Source: a virus | Lineage: Duplodnaviria; Heunggongvirae; Uroviricota; Caudoviricetes | IMG/VR virus record: IMGVR_UViG_2541047730_000004 | Reading direction: 5' to 3' (one strand) | DNA length: 42,322 nucleotides | Part shown: piece after piece, positions 1 through 37,359 of the stretch | How positions within the stretch are numbered: the first letter of the stretch is position 1 | Layout of the letters: every line of letters starts with the position of its first letter | Made by a program: the position numbers and the translations under genes | The notes under the pieces: model-generated | The model's database searches: none | What the model was told of the DNA's origin: nothing | What the model saw: the letters and a program-made list of their open reading frames with translations, nothing else

Positions 1-516
1 ATGAAATTAAAAAAATGTCTTCTGCCTGTGGCAATGTTAGCGTCATTTACTCTGGCAGGATGCCAGTCAAATGCTGATGATCATGCCGCCGATGTTTATC
101 AAACCGATCAACTGAATACCAAACAAGAAACTAAAACCGTTAATATTATTTCCATTCTTCCCGCAAAAGTTGCCGTAGACAACGCCCAAAATAAACGGAA
201 CGCACAAGCCTTCGGCGCGCTTATTGGCGCTGTCGCTGGCGGTGTTATCGGCCACAACGTCGGGTCTGGCAGCAATTCCGGAACGACAGCAGGTGCAGTT
301 GGCGGCGGAGCTGTTGGCGCAGCAGCGGGTTCTATGGTGAATGATAAAACCTTAGTGGAAGGTGTTTCTTTAACATATAAGGAAGGCACCAAAGTGTATA
401 CCTCCACCCAGGTGGGTAAAGAGTGCCAGTTTACGACAGGTTTAGCCGTTGTTATTACCACGACGTATAACGAAACGCGTATTCAGCCAAATACCAAATG
501 TCCTGAAAAGAGCTAA
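1..516 (+). CDS. Lipoprotein with glycine-zipper segment (SlyB/Pcp-like architecture); host flank or terminal cargo
   Basis: Lipobox LAGC after a hydrophobic signal peptide; Gly/Ala-rich GxxxG stretch (GALIGAVAGGVIGHNVG). Followed by a tight operon partner and a strong terminator. Confidence 0.6.
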   Translation: MKLKKCLLPVAMLASFTLAGCQSNADDHAADVYQTDQLNTKQETKTVNIISILPAKVAVDNAQNKRNAQAFGALIGAVAGGVIGHNVGSGSNSGTTAGAVGGGAVGAAAGSMVNDKTLVEGVSLTYKEGTKVYTSTQVGKECQFTTGLAVVITTTYNETRIQPNTKCPEKS

Positions 517-1290: not shown

Positions 1291-1773
1291 CTATCTGGTC
1301 AGGGTGTCGTATTGTTTTTCGCAGACTCTTCCGGCTTCGGCTGCCCGGTCAGCATACTCTGCCAGTTGTCTGTTTCTCTCGAGAGATTTGCTGAGCACGT
1401 CGGCAAGCAAAACTCCGGTGTCTGCGGCTGACGTCCCAGCGCCGACAATGGCGTTATACTGCCTGAGCTGCTCACGGATGGCAAAGAGTTGTTGCTGCAA
1501 CCGGCCAGCGCGAACGGCAGCATCAAGAGCATCATTGCGCGCCTGGTCGATCCTCTGCTGCGCTTCACGTTCATTGATCGATTTCTCCTGTTCGTAGTGC
1601 TGACGAACTACCTCATCTTCAGCTTTGCGGTCTTCCTTCGCCTGCGCATACCCGGCATCGTACTGACGACTGCCGTGTGCATTCCAGGCTACAACTCCTG
1701 ATATGACCAGAACAGCAAGCATCGCCATGATAACCAACTGTTTCCAGTATGTTTTTGCGAATGCCCAGATCAT
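1291..1773 (-). CDS. Rz-like i-spanin (lysis)
   Basis: N-terminal transmembrane anchor then a charged coiled-coil; lies immediately after the endolysin with an overlapping stop/start; a lipoprotein ORF is embedded in another frame. Confidence 0.7.
1299..1535 (-). CDS. Rz1-like o-spanin lipoprotein embedded in the Rz gene
   Basis: Internal Met followed by lipobox ([13 protein letters not shown]) and a Pro/Ser-rich body, entirely inside the Rz reading frame in a different frame. Start chosen by eye. Confidence 0.45.
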   Translation of the reverse strand: MMLLMLPFALAGCSNNSLPSVSSSGSITPLSALGRQPQTPEFCLPTCSANLSRETDNWQSMLTGQPKPEESAKNNTTP

Positions 1774-2402
1774 ACCGCCAGCACCTTACTGGCAGTGATG
1801 TATCGCGCGCGCCGGTCATCAATGCCGTTCCGGCCACCATTGATAAGCAGAGTTACACGTGCAATATCTCCGGTATACTTCATGCAGCCTTTGCTGGAGA
1901 AGAACCACGCCGCGCTACGAGCCGCGTATTCGTCCTGCGCCAGCAGTTCAGGACTCTCCAGCAGGTCAACCTTAAGACCGTTTCCACAGTCACGATAGTT
2001 ATTCAAACCGGTAATCTGGATAAGTCCGCGCCCACGGTAGTTCCAGCCGTCACCAGGGGCATTGTTCCCCATGCGTTTGCTGTACACCAGATTGGCGATC
2101 GCTCGCTGGCGCTCGAGTGGCAATGGTGGCTCACCAGCACGTCGCCCCAGTGCATTAGCCTGCCCCTGAGTGAGACGCCCAGCCCGAACGAAGTTAGCCA
2201 GTCCGCTGACGCTGTAGTTGAAATTCTCCTGCAACCGGGTGAAGCCCACAGACTCATGCCCGACCTGAGCAATAAACATTGCCAGATCTTCTGGTTTGCT
2301 GATACCAAACTCTTTCATCGCAGAAGTTATATGCGAGAACCAGCGTGCGGCCAGCGCCTCGCTAATACCAGCAGCTCGCTGGAATTGTTTAATCTCCATG
2401 TT
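1770..2402 (-). CDS. Endolysin, glycoside hydrolase family 19 (chitinase-like lysozyme)
   Basis: Motifs VGHES, NY...G and [13 protein letters not shown] typical of GH19 phage endolysins. Start taken at MEIKQF; the longer ORF to 2564 is probably an N-terminal over-extension. Confidence 0.8.
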
Positions 2403-2697
2403 TAGACCTCGATATTTTGAAAATCTGAACAACGTTACCGCGTGTTTTAATAACCGCGGCAAGCATGACAGCGTTGATAATGACCTCAGATAAATCCACA
2501 GCCATTGGCGTGCGTAACCAGATTGCATAAGCGACACGAACTGGAATGCTGGCCGCAGCAACAATCAGGAAATAAGCAAGCCACCCACCCCATCGCCTGT
2601 GTTGAGAACCGTTTCTCCGAAATGTGGCAACTCGAACTGCTATACCGGCGCAAATAACCGCATTGGTGATAAGCAAAAAAAGCTCATGAGTTACCAT
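2389..2697 (-). CDS. Small multi-pass membrane protein in the lysis cassette (holin/antiholin-like)
   Basis: About 100 aa with three hydrophobic segments; overlaps the holin end and the endolysin start. Confidence 0.4.
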
Positions 2698-3097
2698 CGT
2701 CTTTTCTCCCCGGAATTAACTCGCGTGGATTATCGGAACGGTGATAGAGCCAGATCCCAATTCGCACAGCGACGATTGCTGACACAAATGCACCGGCAGA
2801 GAAAACAATCCCTTTCTCGAAAGAATCCTGTGTGATTGTAGGGATCAGGCTGGCTATGCCGATAAGAATTGATGCTGCTGGTTTGTAGAATAGAAGTCCG
2901 CAGAGAAAGCTAAGCATCGACAAGAGCACGCGACGACGAATGGGATACTCTACCGCAGAGGTAACAAAAATCACCGCCCCAGCCAAAGACCCCAAAGCAA
3001 CCTCAGGAGGAACTCCTGCTATCACTGCCGCCAAAGAACTCATGCTAAGCCACTGATTTAAAGTTTCACTGGTTAGTTGAGCTGACATGTTTTCCAC
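2684..3097 (-). CDS. Holin-like membrane protein
   Basis: About 135 aa with several transmembrane helices and a charged C-terminus; first gene of the lysis cassette. Alternative start at 3088. Confidence 0.5.
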   Translation of the reverse strand: MENMSAQLTSETLNQWLSMSSLAAVIAGVPPEVALGSLAGAVIFVTSAVEYPIRRRVLLSMLSFLCGLLFYKPAASILIGIASLIPTITQDSFEKGIVFSAGAFVSAIVAVRIGIWLYHRSDNPRELIPGRKDDGNS

Positions 3098-3494: not shown

Positions 3495-6470
3495 TTACAT
3501 TGACATTAATATAAACATGGCTAATTCGTCATAACGAATTCCGTAGCGTCCTCCTGCTTTTTTTACAAGAATCATATCTCCTGTTTTATATTGAGAATAA
3601 ATTTTCTCACCTGTATCAGGATCTGTGCTCTCTTCAGTTATCACCTCTTCATCCCATACGTCAGGCCATTCATCGTAACACCAAAAAGCATATTGCTCAG
3701 GGTTTAAACCATGCTTTCTAAGAATATCCCCTACGGTTTGAGCGCCAACGCCAAAATGATACCTGGACGACTCAATTCCTTTGTGATTAATTGAGTCATT
3801 AAATTTAAATTTATAGATGACTGACTTTATTTCAATAGCGGCATTACGCTCTGCATTAAGAATATCATATCTTGTTTTAAGAGTTTCATCTGACGTATTG
3901 ATTGACCCGGTTCCTGCATAGATAACAGAGCATCTGTTTGATGGCTGTCCAATAGCTTTAACATTATCATCAACAGGAGCTATTTTATTAGCATCTGCCA
4001 ACCACCAGTCTGTTCCATCAGCGTGACCGATTCTTACTCTTATCCCACTTCTAATATTTAAACTTCCAGTATTACTCTGTAAATTACAATCTCCTGAAGT
4101 TGGTCCAAGCAGTACAGTTTTACCAACACCACATACTACTCTGGCATTTCCTTTTTGTGATACGAGTCTTGACTCACCTCCTGACTGCTCAGGAAGAGAT
4201 TTATGGTCTATAAATGCATCGCGGGGGTTAAATACACCGTCTCCAGAATTATATCTTCCTCCTGTATAGTTGTTAAATACAGGACCCCAGTCAACGCCAT
4301 TGCCTTCAGAGCACCCGACCATTCTAAGCACTCGAGTATTCCCTGCTGCATATGGTAATGAGCTTGTTGATTGCCGGGAAGCTATCATACGTGCTCCATA
4401 ACCAATAGCATTACCACCATTTATAGTTACATATGCTGGCTGGCTTTCGAAATATGTACTGTAAAAGTTCATATTTCCACAGTCATGTAGATGAATAAGA
4501 ACATCATCCCATCCCTGAATGGTTCCTGCATGTACCTGTACACCGCGAACTGGTTCCCCTGAAACCTCCATACACTCTGATGGTCGGCTGAATGGTTGAG
4601 ACAGGTATTGCGATGTGGCAAGCAGATGTGTGTGGTGATACAGGCTGGTAATGTAGCAATCGAAAAATTGCGTTCCCGCCATACCAAAGTTATCTATGTC
4701 ATTTCGCCGTATAGTAGAACCTACTGTTGCCTCAGAAGCGTTAGACACTCCAGTAAATACTAACTTATCACCGGATACGGATAATCCTGAATAAGTGAAA
4801 TTCCTGCCTCCAGATCTTAAAACCCCGGACGTTTCGAAGGTGTGGCTTGCTGACCATGGGATTTCGATAGTGCTGGACGTTACCGCTGTAATTCGGAATA
4901 CATCATGGGCGCGGATCGAAACACCCTTGAATCCCTGGAATCTACAGTGATAATAGTTTTCATCCTCGCCCTGAGCGGCCAGCGTGCCAGATACAGGAAT
5001 GTTCGTTTTTAAAAGTGCCGTCTTGCGCCAGTATCCAACCACCTGCAAATTGCGGTATTCATTGCCAAAAGACGCACGTGACCAAATACCTACATCCCAC
5101 TCATCGCCAAGACCGGTATTTGCAATGTCTTTATAACCATCCAGCCCATTGAAATATGGAACAATACGAAAGTTCTCAAGGCGAACACATCCTGTCTCTG
5201 GCATCAATATTGCGGCAGAGAATGGTTTAAGCGTGGCTCTTGTAGCCCCATTAGCATCACCGTTAGTAAAATCCAATAAATCATATGATGACGCAGGTGC
5301 CGTTGTTGTATACGGGTCTTCGGAAGATGGATTAGAAACCACACCACCACTAACATCCATATTAGAAACACAATCTACAGTATATTTTTTATTTCCTACA
5401 CCGTACATCAGGAATGTGGTCCCTGTGGTAATATCAGGAGCAAATGTTGCAGTATATCCAGAGACCCATTTGCCCACACCAAGACCAATTATCCCACCAC
5501 CAGAAACAGGTGTTAACGTATCCGTTATTACATACGCATTATCAGTACCATAAATAACCTTTCCTGTGTTAATGGCAGCTTGCCACGCGGCCCAGTCTAT
5601 TGACTGAGATAATGAGTCAACAAAAGGATATAAGGATTTTGCTTCAGAAATTGAAGAAAACCTCTCAGATAATGGATGATATTTCCCATCCCCAATTGCT
5701 CCGAATTGTTTTACATTTAAGAAAAGAGCATTGTTTTCATGCTGAGTTATAGTTACAGCCCCGGCAAATGGCTGCCTTACACCAATTAATGCATCACCTT
5801 TTCCTTCTCCTGCGCTAGATAATTGCAGAAGAACATCTGCGGCACTGCCAGAAGGCACAGGTACACCTATAGGTTTACCATTGACGATACCAATGACAGT
5901 TTCTTCCAGTAAATGAACTGGAGGAAGTGGTTCAATAAAATTATCTGGAACCCGTAATGTCCTGTTAATATTCACATTAACAATATTATCAACATAATTC
6001 TTTGTAGCTGCATCTTGAGGCTTGGAAGGATCGCGCAAATTGCGGATGTAATTATTCAAAGCATCGTAATAGTTTGCCACAAATGATGGTTTGCGCAGCG
6101 CCAGGCTAAACCAACTGCGGACTTGCTGTATCAGCATCGTCAGCTTATCTAACGCGTCTTCATGCACCTCAGCGAAAAACTTTCCCTGATTTCGCAGATC
6201 AGTTTCCTGCGTAACCGGTAGCTCTCGTGATATAGAAATCTGATAACCGTTAGCTAACGCCTTCGACAGAATTACATTACCGCCATTATATCCACCAGCC
6301 CCAGTGACAGTGTAATCAGTATCAAGAGCCAGCACAGCGATATTTTCGTCAAGGTCAACCACCTGTACTGCCAGATCAGATTCCTTGAAAACCCTAAAAG
6401 TATACGGAAATGATGTCGTAACGCCGTTACCTGTGTATTCGTTGTGGTCAACTTCGGTTGAGACCGTCAT
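3495..6470 (-). CDS. Tailspike / tail fibre with conserved N-terminal head-binding domain and C-terminal intramolecular chaperone (peptidase S74-type) domain
   Basis: N-terminus MTVSTEVDHNEYTGNGVTTSFPYTFRVF is the conserved tail-fibre anchor; the C-terminal ~150 aa (DILNAERNAAIEIKSV...) resembles the endosialidase-type auto-cleaving chaperone; 991 aa; visibly lower GC than the core virion genes. Confidence 0.8.
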   Translation of the reverse strand: MTVSTEVDHNEYTGNGVTTSFPYTFRVFKESDLAVQVVDLDENIAVLALDTDYTVTGAGGYNGGNVILSKALANGYQISISRELPVTQETDLRNQGKFFAEVHEDALDKLTMLIQQVRSWFSLALRKPSFVANYYDALNNYIRNLRDPSKPQDAATKNYVDNIVNVNINRTLRVPDNFIEPLPPVHLLEETVIGIVNGKPIGVPVPSGSAADVLLQLSSAGEGKGDALIGVRQPFAGAVTITQHENNALFLNVKQFGAIGDGKYHPLSERFSSISEAKSLYPFVDSLSQSIDWAAWQAAINTGKVIYGTDNAYVITDTLTPVSGGGIIGLGVGKWVSGYTATFAPDITTGTTFLMYGVGNKKYTVDCVSNMDVSGGVVSNPSSEDPYTTTAPASSYDLLDFTNGDANGATRATLKPFSAAILMPETGCVRLENFRIVPYFNGLDGYKDIANTGLGDEWDVGIWSRASFGNEYRNLQVVGYWRKTALLKTNIPVSGTLAAQGEDENYYHCRFQGFKGVSIRAHDVFRITAVTSSTIEIPWSASHTFETSGVLRSGGRNFTYSGLSVSGDKLVFTGVSNASEATVGSTIRRNDIDNFGMAGTQFFDCYITSLYHHTHLLATSQYLSQPFSRPSECMEVSGEPVRGVQVHAGTIQGWDDVLIHLHDCGNMNFYSTYFESQPAYVTINGGNAIGYGARMIASRQSTSSLPYAAGNTRVLRMVGCSEGNGVDWGPVFNNYTGGRYNSGDGVFNPRDAFIDHKSLPEQSGGESRLVSQKGNARVVCGVGKTVLLGPTSGDCNLQSNTGSLNIRSGIRVRIGHADGTDWWLADANKIAPVDDNVKAIGQPSNRCSVIYAGTGSINTSDETLKTRYDILNAERNAAIEIKSVIYKFKFNDSINHKGIESSRYHFGVGAQTVGDILRKHGLNPEQYAFWCYDEWPDVWDEEVITEESTDPDTGEKIYSQYKTGDMILVKKAGGRYGIRYDELAMFILMSM

Positions 6471-6573
6471 GTTAAATCTCCAGATAGTCGCAGCACCTGT
6501 TGCGCCGCATATCCGGTTATTCTATTACCTGAAAAACCACATATGGATAGATAACCCATAAATACGAACAGAT

Positions 6574-6590
6574 ATTACCTTTCAGGTGAT
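6574..6590. promoter_or_regulatory. Operator-like palindrome ATTACCTTTCAGGTGAT (TTACC-N5-GGTRA family)
   Basis: Matches the motif repeated at 12 or more intergenic sites; an additional half-site lies at 6525-6529. Confidence 0.45.
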
Positions 6591-6626
6591 TCGCAAAACG
6601 TGCTGGATAGCAAACAAATTATTTGA

Positions 6627-6646
6627 TACTGTATAAATATACAGTT
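6627..6646. promoter_or_regulatory. LexA box (SOS box)
   Basis: ATACTGTATAAATATACAGTTA: CTGT-N8-ACAG with an AT-only spacer and consensus-like flanks, ending 6 bp before the ATG at 6652. Confidence 0.75.
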
Positions 6647-6651
6647 ATTGC

Positions 6652-6924
6652 ATGGAGAAGATTAAGATGCAGCAGTATCACTATCCACTGGAAGACGGAT
6701 TTACCGAAAGGATTCACACGCCGGGAGGCGTCAGGTCACTGGTGGAGGGATCGCACTTGATGAAATTACTCCGGGATCTCGATAAGGATGGATTTAATGT
6801 CGATGGCCCACTTGCCGAACTGACTGCACTGATTAACTACGTCACCAGCTCACAGATGTCTATGCGGGATCTGCAAACACATCTCGACTATTGTGCCGAA
6901 CAATTACGAAAACAAACCACATAA
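6652..6924 (+). CDS. Small stand-alone antirepressor-C-terminal-domain protein, candidate SOS-inducible antirepressor
   Basis: Shares a diverged domain (RSLV..S.LM.LL..L..DG..V.G..AELT....YV......M.DLQTH..Y) with the C-termini of both Ant-like proteins at 8074..8730 and 9513..10451. LexA box immediately upstream. Alternative start at 6667 has a well-spaced GGAG RBS. Confidence 0.55.
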   Translation: MEKIKMQQYHYPLEDGFTERIHTPGGVRSLVEGSHLMKLLRDLDKDGFNVDGPLAELTALINYVTSSQMSMRDLQTHLDYCAEQLRKQTT

Positions 6925-6928
6925 AGAA

Positions 6929-6950
6929 AAGGCCGCAAGAGCGGCCTATC
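6929..6950. terminator. Bidirectional terminator between convergent genes
   Basis: GGCCGC-AAGA-GCGGCC hairpin flanked by an A-rich and a T-rich tract. Confidence 0.6.
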
Positions 6951-7674
6951 GTTTCGCTTTGTGCTCGTCCCAGCACGTTTTGCACCATGCCATTAAGCCA
7001 TCCGCATTTTGATTATTAGGGTAAAAACTGGTTCGTTTTCTGCGGACATTACAAATTGGGCACCACTTCATATGGCGTGTATTCTTTGGGCCATCGAGAC
7101 ACCTTGCACACCACTTAGTCAATCCATCTGGATTTTTTGACGATTTCCTGAATTTTCCATATGGAAGGGTTATTCTGCATCGCAAACACTGCTTGCGGGC
7201 ACTTGAAACTTCGTTAGCTGATTCTTCTTTTGACGGCGATACAGAAGGTATTCTTGCTGGCTCTGATACTGCCTGAGGTGCTTTTTTAGGTGACTGAGAC
7301 GATGTGTCATCACCAGGGAATCTTCCATGATATGCCGGACGCGTTGACACTCCAGGTGGAAGCTCTGCTGTAAATGGCTTTGGCTGAATCAGTTGCCTCT
7401 CTTTTGCTAACTCCTGCTGTTTATAATATGTCTGGATTACCGCACTATCATAAGCAGGAGGTGCGGAAATATTAGGCGCATTACCTCCAGTTTTTTGAAA
7501 CTGAGTAGAGGTGTGTTCTATCACCTGTGTACGATTAATCGTTATCTCCCCATCTTCGGTCTTTATCGTTTTGTTATGATTAACGACCGTACGATCAGAG
7601 ATCTTAGTCTTGTTCTGGTTGATAACGTAAATAATCACCGCAACCACACCAACAACTATCCAGAAAACTTCCAT
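6946..7674 (-). CDS. Membrane-anchored protein with tandem Cys-rich (zinc-ribbon-like) repeats; function unknown
   Basis: N-terminal transmembrane helix (VFWIVVGVVAVIIYVI), Pro/Ser-rich linker, then four CxxC pairs in two internal repeats (NPDGLTKWCARC / NADGLMAWCKTC). Confidence 0.55.
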   Translation of the reverse strand: MEVFWIVVGVVAVIIYVINQNKTKISDRTVVNHNKTIKTEDGEITINRTQVIEHTSTQFQKTGGNAPNISAPPAYDSAVIQTYYKQQELAKERQLIQPKPFTAELPPGVSTRPAYHGRFPGDDTSSQSPKKAPQAVSEPARIPSVSPSKEESANEVSSARKQCLRCRITLPYGKFRKSSKNPDGLTKWCARCLDGPKNTRHMKWCPICNVRRKRTSFYPNNQNADGLMAWCKTCWDEHKAKR

Positions 7675-7692
7675 TGCTTTTCCTCACAATAA

Positions 7693-7711
7693 TATTACCT
7701 TAAAGGTAATA
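7693..7711. promoter_or_regulatory. Operator palindrome TATTACC-TTAAA-GGTAATA (perfect 7-5-7)
   Basis: Perfect inverted repeat in the divergent intergenic region between 6946..7674 (-) and 8074..8730 (+). Confidence 0.6.
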
Positions 7712-7742
7712 TCTTGCTTTCAGGTGATCAAGCGTTAAACGC

Positions 7743-7764
7743 AATCAACCAAATACGGTTGATT
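7743..7764. promoter_or_regulatory. Second, different palindrome AATCAACC-AAATAC-GGTTGATT
   Basis: 8-bp perfect inverted arms; distinct from the TTACC/GGTAA motif; same regulatory region. Confidence 0.35.
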
Positions 7765-7786
7765 TTTATATTTATCAGCGTTTATC

Positions 7787-7804
7787 ATTACCTTTGCGGT
7801 AAAT
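7787..7804. promoter_or_regulatory. Operator palindrome ATTACC-TTTGC-GGTAAAT
   Basis: TTACC-N5-GGTAA family. Confidence 0.5.
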
Positions 7805-7894
7805 TTACATCGCACTCCTCTTGTGCCATAGTAATCGGGCACTGGCAAAATCCAGTGCCGGGATTGGTCTCCCGGATTACTAAGTGGCGCATAC

Positions 7895-7917
7895 CACGCC
7901 AGACGTGGTTTTTTTAT
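7895..7917 (+). terminator. Intrinsic terminator-like hairpin inside the 400-bp leader upstream of the AntA-like gene
   Basis: CCACG-CCAGA-CGTGG followed by TTTTTTT; a longer stem-loop (GCACTGG...CCAGTGC) lies at about 7838-7862. Confidence 0.4.
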
Positions 7918-8073
7918 GCGTATAGCACAGTCATGCCAGAATTATGGTGGGCTGAATGGGGGTCCGAAAGGACGCCGGTACCACTTAGGCCGGTAAGACC
8001 AACTCCGTTCAGTTCACCACCATCTGATTGGTCTCAGCGGTGGTGATGTAATTCGCTAAGTGGAGACGCCATC

Positions 8074-8730
8074 ATGAACGCTCAACTCATCCCCGTATTC
8101 AACGGCACTATATCTAACGAAACAGCCCTACTTTGTAATGCCCGCGATCTGCACGCTTTTTTAGGTGTTAAAAAGGTGTTTGCAGCATGGATTACAAATC
8201 GCATATCAGAATACGAATTCATTGAAAATCAAGACTATATTTTGCTTTCCAATTTGGGAAAGCAAACATCTGGTAGAGGCGGCCACAACCGCAAAGAGTA
8301 CCACCTCACCCTTGATACAGCCAAAGAGCTGGCGATGGTCGAGCGTAACGAAAAAGGTCGCCAGGTGCGACGCTACTTCATTGAATGCGAGAAACGTTTA
8401 AGACAACAAGAAACAAAAGTGGAGAAGGTCTTGTCAGGCTTCATGCCCGCCATTATGGAGGCGATCAAGCTGGAAGACAAAAAAGAATACAGCGCCCCAC
8501 TGAAGCCCGGCTACCGTAGCCTGATTCATTCGCCGTCTGGTGTTCTCGGCCTGACGGAGAACTCACTGCTGATGAATTTGCTGAACCAGTTACAGGAAGA
8601 CGGGCATGACGTATCGGGCGCGGCGGCGGAACTGACCACCATGTTCTGCTACATCGTTGGTGTGAGTAAATGCCTGCGTGATATCCAGACGCACGCGGAG
8701 TACATCAACGACAAGGCAGGGTTCTTCTGA
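8074..8730 (+). CDS. Antirepressor, AntA/Bro-N-like N-terminal domain plus shared Ant C-terminal domain
   Basis: N-terminal region (DLHAFLGV...W...[12 protein letters not shown]...[14 protein letters not shown]...RRYFIECEK) is typical of phage antirepressor N-domains; the C-terminal ~75 aa are near-identical to the C-terminus of 9513..10451; RBS GGAGA upstream. Confidence 0.65.
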
Positions 8731-8752
8731 CGGGCGGCGGCACAGGGATGTG
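8498..8752. repeat. Left arm of ~255-bp inverted repeat (about 95% identical to 9489..9746)
   Basis: Direct comparison of the reverse complement: e.g. ggtggtcagttccgccgccgcgcccgatacgtcatgcccgtcttcctgtaactggttcag versus ggttgtcagctccgccgccgcgcccgatacatcatgcccgtcttcctgtaactggttcag. Confidence 0.85.
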
Positions 8753-8795
8753 CTTCTGACATAATCATTTGCGGTGTGATGTAGATTCACGTAAG

Positions 8796-8812
8796 ATTAC
8801 CTTAAAGGTAAA
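8796..8812. promoter_or_regulatory. Operator palindrome ATTACC-TTAAA-GGTAAA overlapping the RBS/start of 8815
   Basis: TTACC-N5-GGTAA family; ends 3 bp before the ATG. Confidence 0.5.
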
Positions 8813-8814
8813 CC

Positions 8815-9039
8815 ATGAGTTTACATGAGGGGGGAAGCATGGAACTGAACATCATCACATTAATGAAAGCGCTTATTGGCGGTGCAGGAAGTGGCTTTGC
8901 TCTTTCTGGCGGGCTGTCTATGATCATACCTACTTTCACAGTGACGACTGGCGTTGCCTACCTTTTTGCCATTACTGGCGGTCTGGCTATGGCAGGTACT
9001 TACATTTTAAAAAAAATGAGTTCCGGTAGTGCAGACTGA
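8815..9039 (+). CDS. Small glycine-zipper membrane protein (cargo; toxin/holin-like or bacteriocin-like)
   Basis: 74 aa, Gly/Ala-rich transmembrane segments (GGAGSGFALSGG, ITGGLAMAG). Lies in the segment bracketed by the inverted repeats. Alternative start at 8839. Confidence 0.45.
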   Translation: MSLHEGGSMELNIITLMKALIGGAGSGFALSGGLSMIIPTFTVTTGVAYLFAITGGLAMAGTYILKKMSSGSAD

Positions 9040-9376
9040 GATCGTACAAGAATCACATTGGTACAATCCACAGACCGCTCAGGAGCTGGCGATCTTTTAT
9101 TGTATCCTTTGCATTGTGTATATAGTAATCCACCTGATATGGGATTTTCTCTCAAAAGAGACTGGTAGGTTTTCTGTTGTTAACCTTCAGTACAAACTGA
9201 ATGAGGTATATTCATCAACCACATTCGCAACGAGTGGTTTTTTCCTCGTTATGTTATGCGACATGAATAACCCTCTTAGAACATCAGATGCGTTTATCAT
9301 ACCGCTTATCTTGGCAATGCTTACTGGATTCATGATATCAATATCCGCAATAGCGCCAAAAAAAGTTAACATTTAA
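9029..9376 (+). CDS. Small polytopic membrane protein (cargo; possible immunity/partner protein)
   Basis: 115 aa with about three hydrophobic helices; start overlaps the previous gene; intrinsic terminator directly downstream. Confidence 0.45.
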   Translation: MQTEIVQESHWYNPQTAQELAIFYCILCIVYIVIHLIWDFLSKETGRFSVVNLQYKLNEVYSSTTFATSGFFLVMLCDMNNPLRTSDAFIIPLILAMLTGFMISISAIAPKKVNI

Positions 9377-9398
9377 GCCCGCACTGCGGGCTTTTTTG
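9376..9398 (+). terminator. Rho-independent terminator
   Basis: GCCCGC-ACT-GCGGGC followed by TTTTTTG. Confidence 0.65.
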
Positions 9399-9433
9399 TG
9401 TCTGCGGATTCCCGCCCTGGCGGCGGTGGCATT

Positions 9434-9462
9434 CGTTAAAAACAAGGCCGCGAAAGCGGCCT
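9434..9462 (-). terminator. Rho-independent terminator downstream of ant
   Basis: GGCCGC-GAAA-GCGGCC hairpin followed on the minus strand by TTGTTTTTAAC; a perfect 12-bp palindrome GTGACATGTCAC (9463-9474) abuts it. Confidence 0.55.
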
Positions 9463-9488
9463 GTGACATGTCACGATAGTTCAGTTTT

Positions 9489-9746
9489 GCACATCCCTGT
9501 GCCGCCGTTCTGTCAGAAGAACCCTGCCTTGTCGTTGATGTACTCCGCGTGCGTCTGGATATCACGCAGGCATTTGCTCACACCAACGATGTAGCAGAAC
9601 ATGGTTGTCAGCTCCGCCGCCGCGCCCGATACATCATGCCCGTCTTCCTGTAACTGGTTCAGCAGATTCATCAGCAGTGAGTGCTCCGTCAGGCCGAGAA
9701 CACCAGACGGAGAATGAATCAGGCTGCGGTAGCCGGGCTTCAGCGG
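9489..9746. repeat. Right arm of ~255-bp inverted repeat (pairs with 8498..8752)
   Basis: See left arm; covers the 3' end of ant on the minus strand plus about 25 bp past its stop codon. Confidence 0.85.
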
Positions 9747-10451
9747 ATAACCATAACATTTTGTCTGTGTTTTAATTGCCTCACGAAGCGCATCTAACAT
9801 CTTGACTGCCACTTCATCATTCTCTGATGCAGATCCAGCAGGGAGATACTCCCCTTCAAGCGGAACCCGAGCAACAAGAGACAACGCTTCGGCGAATTGA
9901 TCTTCATCAATTTCTTTGTACGAACAGCCAAAATGAGATTTCAGTGACGACCACATGGTGATCATCGCCTTAGCCTGTTTTTCTTTTGGCAGAGACTGAC
10001 CGCGACTCATGACGAGTTGTTTAATGGCTTCCTGCTGTTCAGTGGTGATTTTACCCGGCAACGCCTTTTTAGCTTTGCGTGGGTTAACTACATGGCCTTT
10101 AGTCCAGTAATCGTAGAGCACATCGTCACACTCTTCCTGATACTGGATTACCTTGTCGCGGATTTCAGGGCGTACTTTGTTTGGACTGATGCTGTTCAAC
10201 CAAGCTGCCAATTTTCGTAAAGCCATACAAATCATGGCTTGCACCCCACCGGCAGAAGGTATGGTGATTTCCACCATACCCTTCGAGAAGCGTTGAGAAA
10301 TCTTCTTATGTTGAGATTTCCAGTCTAGCCCCATTCCCTCAACGATAGGTTTCATTGGGGTATACGGTTCACCGTTGTGATTGACAACATAAAGCTCTGC
10401 GCCGTGGAATGGCACGTTGATAGTAGATACCGCTGTTGCTATACTCGTCAT
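9513..10451 (-). CDS. Antirepressor (P22 Ant-like position and architecture)
   Basis: 312 aa directly downstream of an Arc-like RHH gene and divergent from a Mnt-like RHH gene (P22 immI layout); N-terminal domain differs from 8074..8730 but the C-terminal ~75 aa are shared. Confidence 0.65.
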   Translation of the reverse strand: MTSIATAVSTINVPFHGAELYVVNHNGEPYTPMKPIVEGMGLDWKSQHKKISQRFSKGMVEITIPSAGGVQAMICMALRKLAAWLNSISPNKVRPEIRDKVIQYQEECDDVLYDYWTKGHVVNPRKAKKALPGKITTEQQEAIKQLVMSRGQSLPKEKQAKAMITMWSSLKSHFGCSYKEIDEDQFAEALSLVARVPLEGEYLPAGSASENDEVAVKMLDALREAIKTQTKCYGYPLKPGYRSLIHSPSGVLGLTEHSLLMNLLNQLQEDGHDVSGAAAELTTMFCYIVGVSKCLRDIQTHAEYINDKAGFF

Positions 10452-10523
10452 GTCGTTAATTCCTATACGTAGTTTTACGATACTGAAGCCCTGACGGTCT
10501 GGCCACCGTTGGGCTTCGCTGTT

Positions 10524-10691
10524 TTATGCCACGCTATTCTTCTCACCAGTGAGTCCATACACTTTCCTCAGCTGATAGATAATCTCTGTATTGAACTTTC
10601 GGCATTCTTTTTCGCCATTTCTTTCAATAGCTAACTTCACATCGTCCGGAAAACGAACTCGTCGTTGACACATCTCTTTTGCTTTTTGCAT
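10524..10691 (-). CDS. Arc-like ribbon-helix-helix repressor
   Basis: MQKAKEMCQRRVRFPDDVKLAIERNGEKECRKFNTEIIYQLRKVY: beta-strand RVRFP followed by two helices, ~56 aa; AGGAGA RBS 6 nt before this ATG. The longer ORF to 10727 would run through the operator palindrome. Confidence 0.65.
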   Translation of the reverse strand: MQKAKEMCQRRVRFPDDVKLAIERNGEKECRKFNTEIIYQLRKVYGLTGEKNSVA

Positions 10692-10705
10692 TTCATATCT
10701 CCTTA

Positions 10706-10720
10706 GCCCCACGGTGGGGC
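10706..10720. promoter_or_regulatory. Operator palindrome GCCCCAC-G-GTGGGGC; first of three CAC(C/G)GTG elements
   Basis: Perfect 7-1-7 inverted repeat between divergent arc-like and mnt-like genes; related elements CACCGTG (10734-10740) and CACGGTG (10759-10765). Confidence 0.55.
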
Positions 10721-10811
10721 AAAACAATTGTCACACCGTGCGTCATTGATGTCAAGCACACGGTGAGGCATACTTCAATCATTGCAAGTAACTCAATATT
10801 TGGTGAAGAAC

Positions 10812-11243
10812 ATGAGCAGAGAAGATCCACAACTAAGGATCAGACTTCCCGTTGAAGTAAAAGAAAAAATAGAAATTTCTGCAAAAGCCAATAAGCGATC
10901 AATGAACGCTGAAATAGTACAACGTCTTGACACCAGCTTTCTGAAAGATATTCATGAAGATGACGTAATTTCTGCTTATGAAGCAAAAATTATTGCAAAC
11001 AATGCACGGCATGAAATATCAAATATTATTTTCAAAAGAACCTTTAATGAAATTAATAAGAAAATAACACTTGGACATACAAGTTTTTATATAAACCTTA
11101 ATGACCTTGAACTGGAATCACTTGCAGATAATGATTACCAGATCATCTTTGAAAAAACATTTAATAAGCTCAATGAACTAGGTTACATCATCTGTGAAAA
11201 CTCATGGGATGCAGATGGTTTTGGAATTGAAATACCTGAATAG
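10812..11243 (+). CDS. Mnt-like ribbon-helix-helix repressor with a long C-terminal extension
   Basis: PQLRIRLPVEVKEKIEISAKANKRSMNAEIVQRL is an Arc/Mnt-type RHH; divergent from arc-ant; the AT-rich C-terminal ~80 aa have no recognisable motif. Confidence 0.6.
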   Translation: MSREDPQLRIRLPVEVKEKIEISAKANKRSMNAEIVQRLDTSFLKDIHEDDVISAYEAKIIANNARHEISNIIFKRTFNEINKKITLGHTSFYINLNDLELESLADNDYQIIFEKTFNKLNELGYIICENSWDADGFGIEIPE

Positions 11244-11285
11244 GAAGAACAAAAGGCGTGTACATATTACACGTCTTTAATACAA

Positions 11286-11897
11286 TTGAAAAACGCCACA
11301 TTACTGATGTATGTTACAACAAGGAGCGATATTTTGAAAACCATATCTATATTAAAGGTTGCATTAGGCGTCGCTATTATTTTGACTCTCTCAATATTGT
11401 TTTATTTTTACCACAAAAAAAATGCTATTGCTCTTGATGGTCACGCGGCAAACTCATTTTTCTCAGAGTACATAGTGCCGCTATCAGGAAGCGGTATAAC
11501 AAATAAATATACTGACTATGACATCAAATATGGAATTGATGATGGGGAGACTATTGTATTACATGTAATCATTAAAAACCTAATGACAGTAAATAAAAAT
11601 ACAGACTTCAACGATAAAAATACAATACATCACAACAACAGCAAAACATTAATTTCTTATAGTAGCAACATCTATACGGATAAATACCTAAAATACATCT
11701 CAGAAGATACAATAAAAGCAACCAGCGAAAAGTTAAAAAACATATATTGTGCATCCGGCAGTTTTCACAAATTATCGCCGCAGGAGCGTTTATTCTACGA
11801 AGCAAGAAAACAACGTAAGTCAATAATATTACATTATTATGCTGATTCAGGGGAGTCACTCATATTTAATATTGGGGTTTCCCCTGAATCATGCTAA
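11286..11897 (+). CDS. AT-rich membrane-anchored protein at the P22 sieA-equivalent position (candidate superinfection-exclusion/defence cargo)
   Basis: Single N-terminal transmembrane helix (ILKVALGVAIILTLSILFYFY) then an Asn/Lys/Tyr-rich domain; strongly AT-rich; sits between the last internal-core gene and mnt, co-oriented with mnt. Start uncertain. Confidence 0.45.
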   Translation: MKNATLLMYVTTRSDILKTISILKVALGVAIILTLSILFYFYHKKNAIALDGHAANSFFSEYIVPLSGSGITNKYTDYDIKYGIDDGETIVLHVIIKNLMTVNKNTDFNDKNTIHHNNSKTLISYSSNIYTDKYLKYISEDTIKATSEKLKNIYCASGSFHKLSPQERLFYEARKQRKSIILHYYADSGESLIFNIGVSPESC

Positions 11898-11908
11898 AGG
11901 CGTTTAAC

Positions 11909-14900
11909 TCACCGCATCACCGGATCCACCTGGTTTATTAGTGGCGCAATCCAGAACAGGTTATTGCCTGGTATCAGAGTTCGGACATTATGCGCAATAC
12001 GATCACCGGCATCACCATTCAACACTCCTGCGGTCACATCAATGATGCTATCCGCAAGACCAAATGACGGTCCGAATAGAGATCCTACGAATCCACGACT
12101 GGCATACCTAGACTGTGTGCCAGTGCCAAATAAAGCCCCCAGCCCAACAGCACCACCAGTAGCCTTTTCAGCCATGTTGTTATATTCTATCAATGGCCCA
12201 AGAATACCGGATCTATCTATACCCTCAAGCACCAGCTTCTCTGGTGACCAGTCAACATTTTTCCCTTTCGATGCTTCTTTTAGCGCATAGACCAGTGAGC
12301 CAAGAGCAATCTGAAATGCAGTGCCATAATAAAATTGCGCAGTTCCTTCCTGTAACCCACCAAGTAGCGCACGGTTGTATGAAGCCGTTGTGAATGATTT
12401 AAACTGAAATATCGTTCGCCCCATTGGAGTACTCGCCCATAAAGGTGTGTCACCAATACCGGGGGTGATGATAGTGTTATTAACGTCTTTCAGAACCGCT
12501 GACTGGAATACTCCGGCAACGTACTGATCGTCCCATTTATCAAAGTTACCAATGTGCCATCCATCAATTACCTCACCATGTTTCTCGAACTCACTGCGAA
12601 TACGCGCAGCCATATTGTCGTTGATACCGAGTTTTGCCATGCGACGTGCAGAAAACGCACCGGACAAAATACCGTCTGACGTGAGCATTCCGTTCATGGA
12701 TTTGTTTATGTCATTAAATCGATCCATGAGTGTCAGCTTGCCGAAGGCATCAGTAATTCGCTCCATTCCTGCTTCGACTGCTGTTGTCCTGGAAGAACTG
12801 TCAACAAGATCACCAATTGCACGAGAACGTGAATGTAGTACAGCTTCCAATCCAATCCCCATCTTCAACATATCTTCTTTGCTGGCCTTAAATGCCGGTG
12901 ATTGGGATATCTGAGAAGCATAGCCTTTCATGGTGTTACGGAAACCATTAACCATAACCCCTCTGGCCAGATCTGGAATAGCTGATACTGTCATTCCACC
13001 GAGTTTGGTCGTGAAGTTCACATCCCGCAGAAAAGCGCCAGCACGAACAAAAAACGAAGACGGATCATCAGGCATCCCATATGTACCAACAAGACGATCG
13101 CGTAATGCTGTTATGTCTCTGAGATCATTTGCTCTTGATTTTGAAAGTCTGGACTGTTCTTTCCGTAATTCCTTTTCGTACTTTCGCATTAATGAATCGA
13201 GTTTACCCTGAGGAACAACTTCACCATTGCTCTCATAACGTGCTTTCAGATTTGCCACACTTTCGTCATATTTCGCCTTTATTTTTTCAGGCACTTCCCG
13301 TAACAGACTGTCATATTCGTCCTCAATTAATTGCAGACGCTCAGTCATAGTTCGTTTGCCAAATGTTCTCGTCAACTCAATTTCTGCTGCCGCTTCACGG
13401 ATATGACGTTGCAGCACGTAATTCACATCACTTTCAAGATAATCCCTGATAAGACTATCAGGAACATTTAATGTTCTTTCTTTCGTACTACCTGCGGCTT
13501 TTACAGAAAATACGCTGACAAAATCCTGTGGAACCTTAGCACCAGTAATTTTATTAATTACGATATCCGCTGCAATTTCAGCATCCTCAGGATCCAGTGT
13601 TTTATTTCCTCTCGACCACCAGTCAACCAAAATACGTCGAAATTTATCGCGTTCACTGATTATTTTTCCAACTTTATATATGCGTGGGAAATAGCTTGCC
13701 TGGCCTAATGCTTTCAGTTCTTCATCTGGCGGCAATAAACCAAGCTTTTGCATTTCAACTTTCACCCGATTTAATACAGTTCGCATCGCCTGCGCCGTTT
13801 CCTGAACAACAGGATTAGCATGCACATCACCGCTTCGCATAGCATTCCCAACCTGCTGACGAAATGAATCAAAACTCATGTCACCACCATCAGCTTTATA
13901 CTTTGCGTATGCCTGTTTATTTCCGACAACAACAGCAGCTTCTTCACGCTGCCATCCACGTGTACGGGTTTCTACAGCTACCGGTGTTTCAATCCCCCTT
14001 TCATTTCCTTTAAGGGTGAAATTATTTTCGGCTAACTCCAGCGTTGTTTTTCGCACCGTCTTGGACGGAGACTCCATTAACCTTGTCAAAGGAGTAAGAT
14101 AGCTCCCTGCTTTCCATGCAGCCTTTCCAACCCACCCACCGGAAACAGGGGTTAAATCATCCAGAGTCGCTGTATCAATTTTCATAGCACCAACACTACC
14201 ACCATCGGAAAGCGAAGCGGCAGCCCTGTCAGTCACTGATGTAATGCTCATATTATCAAGAGCATCAGCAACCTCACGTGTGGCTGCAGCCCGGACGGAT
14301 GGCGAAAGCGCAACACCAGCACTGGCAAACACGCCGCTCATCATCGCACCCGCTGCAACGTGAGCGGCACTTTCACCCCATGAGCGTGTTATTTGCTGAT
14401 TATTCAGTACAACCTCGCTTAATGCTGTACCGGCAGCACCAATCGCAATCTGTGAGCCAATACGCGCCAGTGCCCCTCCTTGAGCACCGGGAATAAACAT
14501 TGACGCAACAGTAACCGGATCCATTCCCGCAGCAATACTGGCAAGGGTTCCAACTACGCCAGCATCAGACAATAAACGTCTGTCTTCATTTTCATCATCT
14601 ATCTGCTGCTTAATCCACGCCGTTTCCTCTGGCGATCGGGAATCTGCAAATTTCGCCCCCCAGTATTCATAACCGTGCAACTCATTTTTATCAGCATATG
14701 GGTTATAACCCTCGACCGGTTCAAACTGTCTGGCTGGGCGGAAAAAACCAGACAGAATATTGTTCTGTCGCATTGCAGCCCCCCATACGGAAGGCTCAGG
14801 TGGCAATGGCTCAGGATTAGCCCCTTCCGGAAGGGCAACATCAAACCCAGTTTGTTCCGGCAAAACATTACCTGACGGGATCAGTCCGTTATTAAGATCT

Positions 14901-36496: not shown

Positions 36497-36520
36497 ATAT
36501 TTATTTCAGATAATAAATAT
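36497..36520. promoter_or_regulatory. AT-rich 9-6-9 palindrome ATATTTATT-TCAGAT-AATAAATAT in the switch region
   Basis: Perfect inverted arms; may be a promoter element or a second operator type. Confidence 0.35.
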
Positions 36521-36550
36521 TCACCCATAAGGTAACAAAAATCAAGGATA

Positions 36551-36585
36551 GTTACCTATGAGGTGCATTTACCTGTTGGGTAATA
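36551..36585. promoter_or_regulatory. OR-equivalent: two adjacent operator sites
   Basis: AGTTACC-TATGA-GGTGCAT and TTTACC-TGTTG-GGTAATA between the cro-like and CI-like genes. Confidence 0.6.
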
Positions 36586-36638: not shown

Positions 36639-37223
36639 ATGAAAAGTATCCAGGACGTCCGCAGGCAAAATCTCAACGACTTGATCGACCGTGAATTCAA
36701 TGGTGTTCAGACGCGGATGGCAGAAAAACTTGGAACTCAGGCAAATCTGGTAAACCGCTGGGCTCTTGGCAAGAAGGTTATCGGCGACCAGGTTGCGCGA
36801 AAAATTGAAGCTGCCGCCAATAAACCACGTAACTGGCTTGATATCGATCGCTCGCTTTCTCAGGAAGGTTTTCAGCCTGTCGGCCCAAGCGACATTGGTC
36901 AGCTGGCGGCTCACAACCTGGAACGCTGGATGAGCGAAAGCCGCGACCTTTCAACACAGGGAAAACTTCACCGCGCATCCGGCGTCGCCCAGGTGACAAT
37001 CAGCCGCCTGTTAAACAATGAGGTCAGCGTTTCCATTTCCACCCTGGAGAATGTTGCATCCGCATTCGGGCGTCACGGCTATGAATTACTGATTCACCCG
37101 CACGACCCTGCGACCATCAACTATGACCGCTCGCGCTACGCATTGTTACCCGAAACCGAGAAAGCAAAGATCGAAAGTTATATTGAATTTGTCATCAACC
37201 AGAACGAAAAAAACAAACAATAA
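36639..37223 (+). CDS. CI-like repressor with two HTH (XRE-type) segments and no LexA-like peptidase domain
   Basis: HTH-like RMAEKLGTQANLVNRWALGKK and ASGVAQVTISRLLNNEVSVSISTLENVASAFG. No Ala-Gly / GDSM / Lys autocleavage signature. Divergent from cro; terminator and OL-like sites downstream. Confidence 0.65.
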   Translation: MKSIQDVRRQNLNDLIDREFNGVQTRMAEKLGTQANLVNRWALGKKVIGDQVARKIEAAANKPRNWLDIDRSLSQEGFQPVGPSDIGQLAAHNLERWMSESRDLSTQGKLHRASGVAQVTISRLLNNEVSVSISTLENVASAFGRHGYELLIHPHDPATINYDRSRYALLPETEKAKIESYIEFVINQNEKNKQ

Positions 37224-37278: not shown

Positions 37279-37297
37279 TATTACCTAATAGGTAATT
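37279..37297. promoter_or_regulatory. OL-equivalent operator 1: TATTACC-TAATA-GGTAATT
   Basis: Near-perfect palindrome upstream of the plus-strand early operon. Confidence 0.6.
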
Positions 37298-37340
37298 TTT
37301 TTAACTCATATCTATTGACATCAAACCAAATACGCATAAT

Positions 37341-37359
37341 TATTACCTCAACGGTAACA
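37341..37359. promoter_or_regulatory. OL-equivalent operator 2: TATTACC-TCAAC-GGTAACA, with TTGACA (37315-37320) upstream
   Basis: TTACC-N5-GGTAA; followed by the direct repeat GGTAACAGACCGAGGTAAC. Confidence 0.55.

Follow-up and report, generated by a model that had tools for sequence, protein, structure and literature searches.

Two overlapping genes, here called A and B, make up a compact accessory unit in the IMG/VR record IMGVR_UViG_2541047730_000004, a 42-kb (42,322-nt) stretch of DNA that we refer to as the window. The window is an epsilon15/phiV10/TL-2011b-like (Uetakevirus) prophage of E. coli. As the first-pass annotation had proposed, A and B encode small membrane proteins and form an accessory pair complete in itself, with a predicted operator-controlled promoter and a predicted terminator of their own. 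With a probability of roughly 0.3, we read the two products as a heteromeric inner-membrane exclusion or defence complex. Tentatively, the pair could be a previously unrecognised two-protein anti-phage system, acting by exclusion or abortive infection, in which a glycine-zipper hairpin is gated by a small polytopic partner. Uetakevirus phages would have spread it as an early cassette under repressor control, and bacteria would have domesticated it more than once, in guaA-side islands where the operator has decayed and as a core locus of Yersinia. The A-B family is uncharacterised, yet it is of a familiar kind, that of small phage accessory membrane proteins.

A and B are conserved genes for small membrane proteins

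A and B are genuine genes under strong purifying selection, since both have a low dN/dS and each has a PHROG family of its own. Compared with locus L002, whose DNA is 85% identical, dN/dS was 0.089 for A and 0.051 for B. A matches phrog_13406 (E = 2.6e-36, residues 1 to 62 over 62/62 profile positions) and B matches phrog_36716 (E = 3.9e-60 over 86/86 profile positions), both of which are listed with function unknown.

The first gene had initially been read as encoding 74 residues. Its plus-strand open reading frame (ORF), 8815 to 9039, is present in the ORF list and is truly coding, but the reading was too long at its 5' end. Relatives do not preserve the ATG at 8815 in the reading frame, whereas they do preserve ATG 8839; they also keep AGGAGG or GAGGGGG at the position of the ribosome-binding site, and the PGAP call for A in a near-identical genome is 66 aa. 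Judged from this conservation, the true start of A is ATG 8839.

The glycine-zipper membrane segments ascribed to the first protein are borne out by its composition, its model and its alignment. Glycine, alanine and serine account for 38% of the residues, and a small-xxx-small ladder (A11-G15-G19-S23-S27) runs along helix 1. AlphaFold2 models a hairpin of two helices (5-29 and 37-61; mean pLDDT 80). Among 36 homologues, the conserved part is helix 1 with the turn, and helix 2 is variable. Helix 1 carries the zipper motif K-x4-GGAG-x-G-x4-GG-x-S, and K10, G15, A16, G17, A21, G24, S27, P31, T34 and T36 are invariant; G14 is near-invariant, being replaced by alanine in six members. The C-terminal end has a KK motif at 58-59.

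B is polytopic, as had also been noticed: its hydropathy profile shows two helices of strong hydrophobicity with a weaker one between them, and AlphaFold2 gives three helices at low confidence (pLDDT 62). Its conserved core reads YSSxTFATS...NPLRTSDAF. The gene has a GC content of 38.8%, compared with 47.6% for the window, and, although intact, is without annotation in the PGAP record of the near-identical genome and skipped among the called genes of Klebsiella and Yersinia loci (in all, L001 and L016-L024). Gene callers likely miss it because of its low GC content and the non-ATG or overlapping starts that it has in many loci. The overlap between the genes noted at first pass is real: the 3' end of A covers the start of B by 11 nt (9029-9039). 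Through this overlap, translation of the two genes is probably coupled.

The unit carries a main-repressor operator on its predicted promoter

The putative sigma-70 promoter of A-B (Table 1) is weak. It matches the consensus at 7/12 positions and is absent from the promoter-scan listing. A TTGCxx hexamer, a 17-nt spacer and TAAGAT or TACTAT occur at the same place in the diverged loci L003 and L016.

The palindrome that the first-pass annotation had seen across the first ribosome-binding site is also real, although it lies elsewhere, over the inferred -10 element and transcription start. In a scan of both strands that allowed up to three mismatches, ATTACC-N5-GGTAAT matched the window 37 times, where 3.2 matches would be expected. 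The copy before A, ATTACCTTAAAGGTAAA, is no operator of the immI type. It matches instead the motif of the Uetakevirus main repressor, for which it is a predicted site: the epsilon15 GenBank record labels ATTACCTGTAAGGTAAT, which has the same motif, as "protein_bind: repressor, lysogeny". A gene with an HTH_3 domain flanked by operator clusters is the candidate for the main repressor. We also considered the palindrome as a Mnt/Arc operator and ruled this out: the motif occurs throughout the phage and on both sides of the HTH repressor gene, and the arc/mnt intergenic region has no copy of it. Copies are spread over the genome beyond the immunity region, at 6574, 7694, 7787, 8796, 26949, 27566, 30486, 34237, 36568, 37280 and 37342, among others. 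This scatter suggests a dispersed set of repressor-controlled promoters, probably including those of the gp19-like gene, of ant1 and of a divergent 242-aa gene.

Twenty viral loci were examined, and 19 of these contain gene A. The operator stands 38-48 nt before A in 17 of the 19, and the remaining two keep its core with one mismatch. It moves with A-B even where the pair sits beyond a Bro-N gene. Because the main-repressor operator core lies on the inferred promoter in 19/19 viral loci with A, we expect phage copies of the pair to be silent in a lysogen and expressed upon infection or induction. By the same reasoning, A-B and ant1 would share an early or derepressed programme, as opposed to one of lysogenic conversion. 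A published serum experiment is consistent with such expression of cargo at this site: in a phiv142-3 lysogen, the genes occupying the corresponding slot were upregulated together with replication genes (PMC7724020).

An intrinsic terminator directly follows the stop codon of B, its stem (9375-9393) ending in a T-run, and is kept behind different cargo in L002, L003 and TL-2011b. The unit thus extends from promoter and operator to terminator, about 8769 to 9400. Terminators and inverted repeats had both been proposed as its boundaries; the terminator holds, and the inverted repeats bound a variable cargo slot.

A variable cargo slot lies between two antirepressor genes

The A-B unit is located between two convergent antirepressor modules, near the tailspike gene. 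These surroundings are immI-like, as first noted, with AntA, P22_AR_N and Arc domains (Pfam) and sar, C4 and isrK RNAs (Rfam). The lysis cassette, tailspike and integrase are at positions usual for Uetakevirus. Across 6500-12000, TL-2011b is the closest phage (95.8% identity, 81% coverage), and the A-B region also occurs in two E. coli chromosomes at 99.9% identity across 98-100% of the query.

The inverted repeats (235 nt at 96%, 8497-8731 and 9512-9746, with a further 19 nt at 100%) correspond to the C-terminal domains that ant1 and ant2 share at their homologous 3' ends, and they flank the variable slot. An invertible segment was ruled out, as A-B keeps one orientation with respect to the tailspike in all 15 loci compared; for this reason, the repeats seem to be domains common to both antirepressors and to act as recombination joints. 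Three copies of the antirepressor C-terminal domain (phrog_450 / phrog_15539) are present, at 6652-6924, 8497-8731 and 9512-9746. The copies belong to ant1, ant2 and a stand-alone 90-aa gene homologous to epsilon15 gp19. All three resemble recombination joints of a highly mosaic region, in which gene orders are rearranged in L040 and L053.

TL-2011b has the same promoter/operator and terminator between its ant genes, and between these elements its cargo is a 59-aa ORF and a YafO-family toxin gene. Because the surrounding elements are shared and the cargo differs, the slot is, as far as sequence comparison can tell, a fixed promoter-operator-terminator frame with an exchangeable payload. The slot of phiv142-3 holds a third kind of cargo, so that this phage was ruled out as an A-B carrier, and the slot of phiV10 holds almost none. 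A third slot gene is found in L002, L003, TL-2011b and phiv142-3; it encodes a 53-58-aa peptide with a signal-peptide-like N-terminus, annotated as "transmembrane anchored protein." Alignment with L003, TL-2011b and L002 identified a clean deletion in the window (junction 9400/9401), which left the last 13 codons of this gene. In phiv142-3, "orf10" is the published serum-resistance gene, of 52 aa (PMC7724020). It lies inside a 193-aa ORF in another frame of the same cargo slot (L038, 3045-3626), and the serum-resistance phenotype may belong to this larger, unannotated ORF, which is unrelated to the YafO-family gene of TL-2011b.

A and B occur together in prophages and in chromosomes

Wherever both positions could be read (about 39 loci), A directly precedes B, with a junction that is either a 1-nt gap or an 8-11-nt overlap. 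As the pairing is strict, translation probably coupled and the small-residue helices complementary, we infer that A and B assemble into one heteromeric inner-membrane complex. The pair is found in Uetakevirus prophages of E. coli, Salmonella and Klebsiella, and also in Providencia. The A family comprises 51 clusters, every one from Enterobacterales. A profile search with B reached 84 representatives (50% clustering), with Providencia, Erwinia and an Oceanospirillaceae bin among them. On the marine Oceanospirillaceae contig, B is about 36% identical, and the 59-aa protein that precedes it still reads KSIIGGAG. Among E. coli complete genomes, 22 of 5426 (3 + 19) carry the pair, at 87-100% query coverage.

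Two settings lie outside intact prophages. In Yersinia, A-B stands without the operator between zntB and the gene for a peptide-binding protein in at least 10 species, and the A protein of Y. enterocolitica is on well over a thousand contigs. This locus looks vertically inherited. Three guaA-adjacent islands (L013, L014 and L032, from Kosakonia and two other contigs) keep A-B alone, beside guaA or an IS element, with a mutated relic of the operator, ATTCCCCCACAGATAAT, at the original distance from A. According to the ZX5 paper, phiV10, epsilon15 and ZX5 use the 3' end of guaA as their attachment site (PMC9782041); the paper contains nothing on operators. The islands look like cases of domestication after prophage decay.

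Several neighbours of the pair have roles in defence or immunity. In L014, A-B adjoins a Drt1a/Drt1b system, identified by PADLOC matches of the neighbouring genes. On the marine contig, B is immediately followed by a gene that matches PD-Lambda-2_B (1e-28). Elsewhere, the neighbours include hipBA, higB and SUKH-type immunity genes.

Profile and structure searches link the pair to no characterised family

The first-pass annotation had suggested a profile search against holin, Hok-like and bacteriocin families. The libraries that we searched include all three, and the outcome was negative across Pfam, PHROGs, NCBIfam, PADLOC and PDB sequences. Pfam, NCBIfam and PADLOC hold no family for A or B, PHROGs holds only the two unknown-function families described above, and PDB sequence profiles gave no match for either protein. 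Searches with 36 A homologues and 50 B homologues led to the same outcome. Holin profiles in Pfam and the annotated PHROGs matched neither protein, and none matched any of the 36 A homologues at E up to 10. Small membrane toxin families (Hok/Gef, TisB, GhoT and similar) were without a match in Pfam, NCBIfam and PADLOC. A bacteriocin profile, BacteriocIIc_cy, touched one of the 36 A members (E = 0.094), and a C39-peptidase ABC exporter was absent from the called neighbours of the loci examined. At E up to 1, no PADLOC component model matched A or B, nor the homologues of the two in L003; the neighbours alone match.

Comparisons aimed at particular candidates were similar. With hhalign, the B-family profile reached a probability of 0.2% against P22 SieA, and homology to SieA or orf59a was ruled out by this method. 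Homology to epsilon15 gp22, which is equal in length to A, was likewise ruled out (hhalign probability 0.2%), and there is no polymerase-like (wzy-type) gene between 6400 and 12000. Foldseek against viral structures returned nothing under E = 0.1 for either model, and the B model (pLDDT 62) is too uncertain for fold comparison. An Rfam E-value scan of 6400-11500 found inside 8815-9376 only a sub-threshold Trp_leader match on the terminator, and no antisense-RNA antitoxin of a known family; a novel RNA is possible.

Weighing the explanations

Our preferred explanation, an exclusion or defence complex, could work as follows. The weak promoter, the single operator over the -10 element and transcription start, A, B and the terminator would constitute an autonomous accessory transcription unit. 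Translational coupling would then yield A and B in roughly fixed proportion, for assembly into a single inner-membrane complex. For phage copies, this complex would be absent from the lysogen and produced with the antirepressor when the repressor is missing, after infection or induction. Its most likely job would be at the cytoplasmic membrane, where it could block DNA entry or membrane damage by competing phages, as an early form of superinfection exclusion comparable with T4 Imm. Where the operator has decayed or is absent, as in the guaA islands and the Yersinia chromosome, the complex might become a constitutive host defence. Retention after prophage decay, together with defence and toxin-antitoxin neighbours, may reflect either an advantage for the cell or persistence through addiction. 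The gene neighbourhoods (Drt1a/b, PD-Lambda-2_B, hipBA, higB, SUKH and the YafO-family slot cargo) make defence our best guess.

Known exclusion proteins offer partial parallels. T4 Imm (with Sp) is a small two-helix inner-membrane protein that is made early in infection, not by a prophage, and has been proposed to act on incoming DNA at the cytoplasmic membrane. A is likewise a small two-helix membrane protein, and early timing and action at the membrane are proposed for A-B. However, the two show no sequence relation (no Pfam family matched A or B at the thresholds used), and A-B differs in having two obligate partners, in coming from a temperate phage and in being wired to its repressor. 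P22 SieA (162-164 aa, three membrane helices) sits in the inner membrane and blocks the conduit formed by ejection proteins (PMC10883804). Like B, it is polytopic, and its gene likewise adjoins the immI (mnt-arc-ant) region in a temperate phage with a short tail. In contrast to A-B, which is a pair behind a promoter with a main-repressor operator, SieA is a single protein expressed from the prophage.

Several points weigh against an exclusion or defence role. Profile searches and hhalign gave no homology to characterised exclusion, defence, toxin, holin or bacteriocin families, and the Foldseek comparisons were uninformative. The inference of defence rests on a few neighbourhoods, and the Yersinia locus, between zntB and the peptide-binding-protein gene, is outside any defence island; it fits an ordinary cellular membrane function equally well. 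Predicted repression in the lysogen would also mean that the pair does not protect lysogens as P22 SieA does. The original suggestion of exclusion therefore survives in part: a prophage-expressed role like that of sieA fits poorly with an operator core in 19/19 viral loci, and exclusion or defence in a broader sense is the best guess from neighbourhoods. Clear homology to a housekeeping membrane protein, which would have told against that suggestion, is partly approached by the syntenic Yersinia chromosomal locus, itself without known function.

That locus is the best support for a different explanation, in which A-B is a borrowed ordinary cellular membrane complex, such as a small channel or a factor for membrane stress or assembly, that conditions the host membrane early in infection and is neither toxin nor defence. 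The Yersinia copies are core, syntenic and apparently vertically inherited, chromosomal copies exist in Providencia and Erwinia, and relatives occur in a marine bacterium; strong purifying selection and the lack of any sequence sign of toxicity also agree. We nevertheless regard this as somewhat unlikely, given that the Enterobacteriaceae and Providencia copies examined sit in Uetakevirus prophages or beside guaA, that the pair is rare and patchy in E. coli, and that its non-phage neighbours are defence, toxin-antitoxin or immunity genes. About equally probable is a membrane toxin (A, which would oligomerise through its glycine zipper into a depolarising pore) with a membrane antidote (B, which coupled translation would supply to bind and neutralise A), serving addiction or abortive infection, whose imbalance would kill or arrest the cell. 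A is indeed a small glycine-zipper hairpin with a strictly co-occurring, coupled downstream partner; the pair persists in decayed prophage remnants beside hipBA and higB, and all 22 E. coli complete genomes that carry it do so at 87-100% query coverage. TL-2011b also holds a YafO-family toxin gene in the same slot: its gp45 and gp44 (YafO family; YafO_toxin, 26.3 bits) share with A-B the slot frame, the two-gene cargo and the small first gene. However, these are unrelated cytoplasmic proteins, whereas A and B are membrane proteins without a toxin signature, matching no Hok/Gef or other toxin profile in Pfam, NCBIfam, PHROGs or PADLOC. There is no Rfam family inside the unit apart from the sub-threshold Trp_leader on the terminator. 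The strong conservation of helix 1 and the turn, with K10, P31, T34 and T36 invariant, is more suggestive of a specific interface than of a generic pore former, and addiction modules do not usually show synteny of the kind found in at least ten Yersinia species.

The remaining explanations fit less of the evidence. A could be a pinholin-like protein, with a weakly hydrophobic first helix rich in Gly, Ala and Ser, in an accessory holin/antiholin-like pair that tunes lysis timing. The phage 21 pinholin S21 (about 66-70 aa, two helices, the first rich in Gly, Ala and Ser) is similar in size and architecture, and a second membrane protein could modulate such a protein. A has the architecture of a holin, though the architecture only, in its two membrane helices (holins have at least two) and its short charged C-terminus, and a few holins are among the weak Foldseek matches, all with E above 1. 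We consider this role improbable: A-B lacks a holin profile match, lies outside the late operon behind a repressor-controlled promoter and is retained in bacterial chromosomes, and the phage has a separate lysis cassette (two holins, DUF2514 and an endolysin-like ORF), which lies beyond the tailspike gene at a distance of more than 5 kb. Still less probable is a surface-conversion factor, a small membrane peptide inhibiting the host O-antigen polymerase. Epsilon15 gp22, from the same genus, resembles A with its 66 aa and two membrane helices, and the A-B unit is near the tailspike gene. Both gp22 and Iap of Pseudomonas phage D3 are inhibitors of the O-antigen alpha-polymerase. A-B shows no similarity to these inhibitors (hhalign, 0.2%), and no wzy-like partner gene is nearby. 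The gp22 gene and A-B lie on opposite sides of the tailspike, and their expression should also be opposite, as such genes need expression in the lysogen and the A-B promoter carries a repressor operator. Finally, A could be a microcin-like (class II) peptide with a double-glycine leader (MELNIITLMKALIGG/AG...) and B its membrane immunity protein. The small polytopic partner downstream is reminiscent of the gene order of bacteriocins and their immunity proteins, and near-invariant G14 and invariant G15 are followed by a Gly-rich hydrophobic peptide. This is extremely unlikely, in that residues 1-13 are uniformly hydrophobic and modelled within helix 5-29, and so look unlike an amphipathic leader of about 15-20 residues with the usual acidic position; the single bacteriocin match (1/36 members, E = 0.09) and the lack of a C39-peptidase ABC exporter among the neighbours of the loci examined also speak against it.

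Neighbouring features of the prophage

Upstream of ant1 (7826-8024, plus strand), Rfam matches include isrK at 7839-7915 (67.7 bits), the C4 antisense RNA at 7940-8024 (61.2 bits) and the c4 a1/b1 target element at 7826-7878 (39.9 bits, under its gathering score of 46.7 bits). On the strength of these three matches, ant1 appears to be under P1/P7-type antisense-RNA immI control, with a predicted main-repressor operator at 7787-7803 in addition. On the other side of the slot, a complete P22-type immI module (9513-11243) comprises an mnt-like Arc-family gene (10782-11243, plus strand), an arc-like gene (10524-10727, minus strand), the sar RNA (10453-10520, plus strand, 45.2 bits) and the P22_AR_N antirepressor (9513-10451, minus strand). 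Two different antirepressor systems therefore face each other within one prophage.

A 242-aa protein encoded at 6946-7674 (minus strand) has a hydrophobic N-terminal stretch and a C-terminal part that matches endonuclease VII-type PHROG families. Its gene diverges from the operator at 7694-7710, and the TL-2011b equivalent is annotated only as a misc_feature. A 171-aa ORF that runs from base 1 of the window (1-516, plus strand) matches the Rick_17kDa_Anti glycine-zipper domain (E = 4.8e-8), with TraT below threshold; this may be either a moron for a surface lipoprotein or a flanking host gene.

Table 1. Coordinates of the A-B unit and of related features in the window
Feature	Position	Strand	Details
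Lysis cassette	~1291-3097		Phage_holin_3_7 (2389-2697), Phage_holin_8 (2684-3097), Glyco_hydro_19-like (endolysin-like) ORF, DUF2514
ant1, AntA-type antirepressor	8074-8730		Behind P1-like C4/isrK RNA leader
Left inverted-repeat arm	8497-8753		3' end of ant1 and ~20 nt
Sigma-70 promoter of A-B (inferred)	8769-8797	+	-35 TTGCGG (8769-8774), 17-nt spacer, -10 TAAGAT (8792-8797)
17-bp operator (predicted), ATTACCTTAAAGGTAAA	8796-8812		Overlaps inferred -10 and transcription start; one mismatch to ATTACC-N5-GGTAAT
Ribosome-binding site of A, GAGGGGGG	8827-8834	+	4 nt before ATG 8839
Gene A	8839-9039	+	66-aa two-helix membrane hairpin; phrog_13406, dN/dS, AlphaFold2
Gene B	9029-9376	+	GTG start; 115-aa polytopic membrane protein; phrog_36716, dN/dS
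Intrinsic terminator of A-B	9375-9400	+	Stem 9375-9393 and T-run, directly after B stop
3' remnant of third slot gene	9401-9439	+	Last 13 codons; clean deletion, junction 9400/9401
Right inverted-repeat arm	9489-9746		3' end of ant2 and ~20 nt
ant2, P22_AR_N antirepressor	9513-10451	-	Part of P22-like mnt-arc-sar-ant module
Candidate main repressor gene	36639-37223	+	HTH_3 (Pfam); flanked by operator clusters 36520-36584 and 37280-37358

Implications

Klebsiella prophages commonly carry A-B, which is a core locus in Yersinia enterocolitica; B is largely invisible to current annotation. If the pair is an exclusion or defence complex, or a protein-protein membrane toxin and antidote, the known systems would gain a compact one of about 540 bp. 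If it has no phage-related phenotype, it would be one more conserved family of small membrane proteins of unknown function. For epsilon15-like phages, the organisation of the slot suggests that accessory cargo plugs into a fixed frame which would place it in the lytic or early programme and not in lysogenic conversion, and this would change how "morons" are read here.

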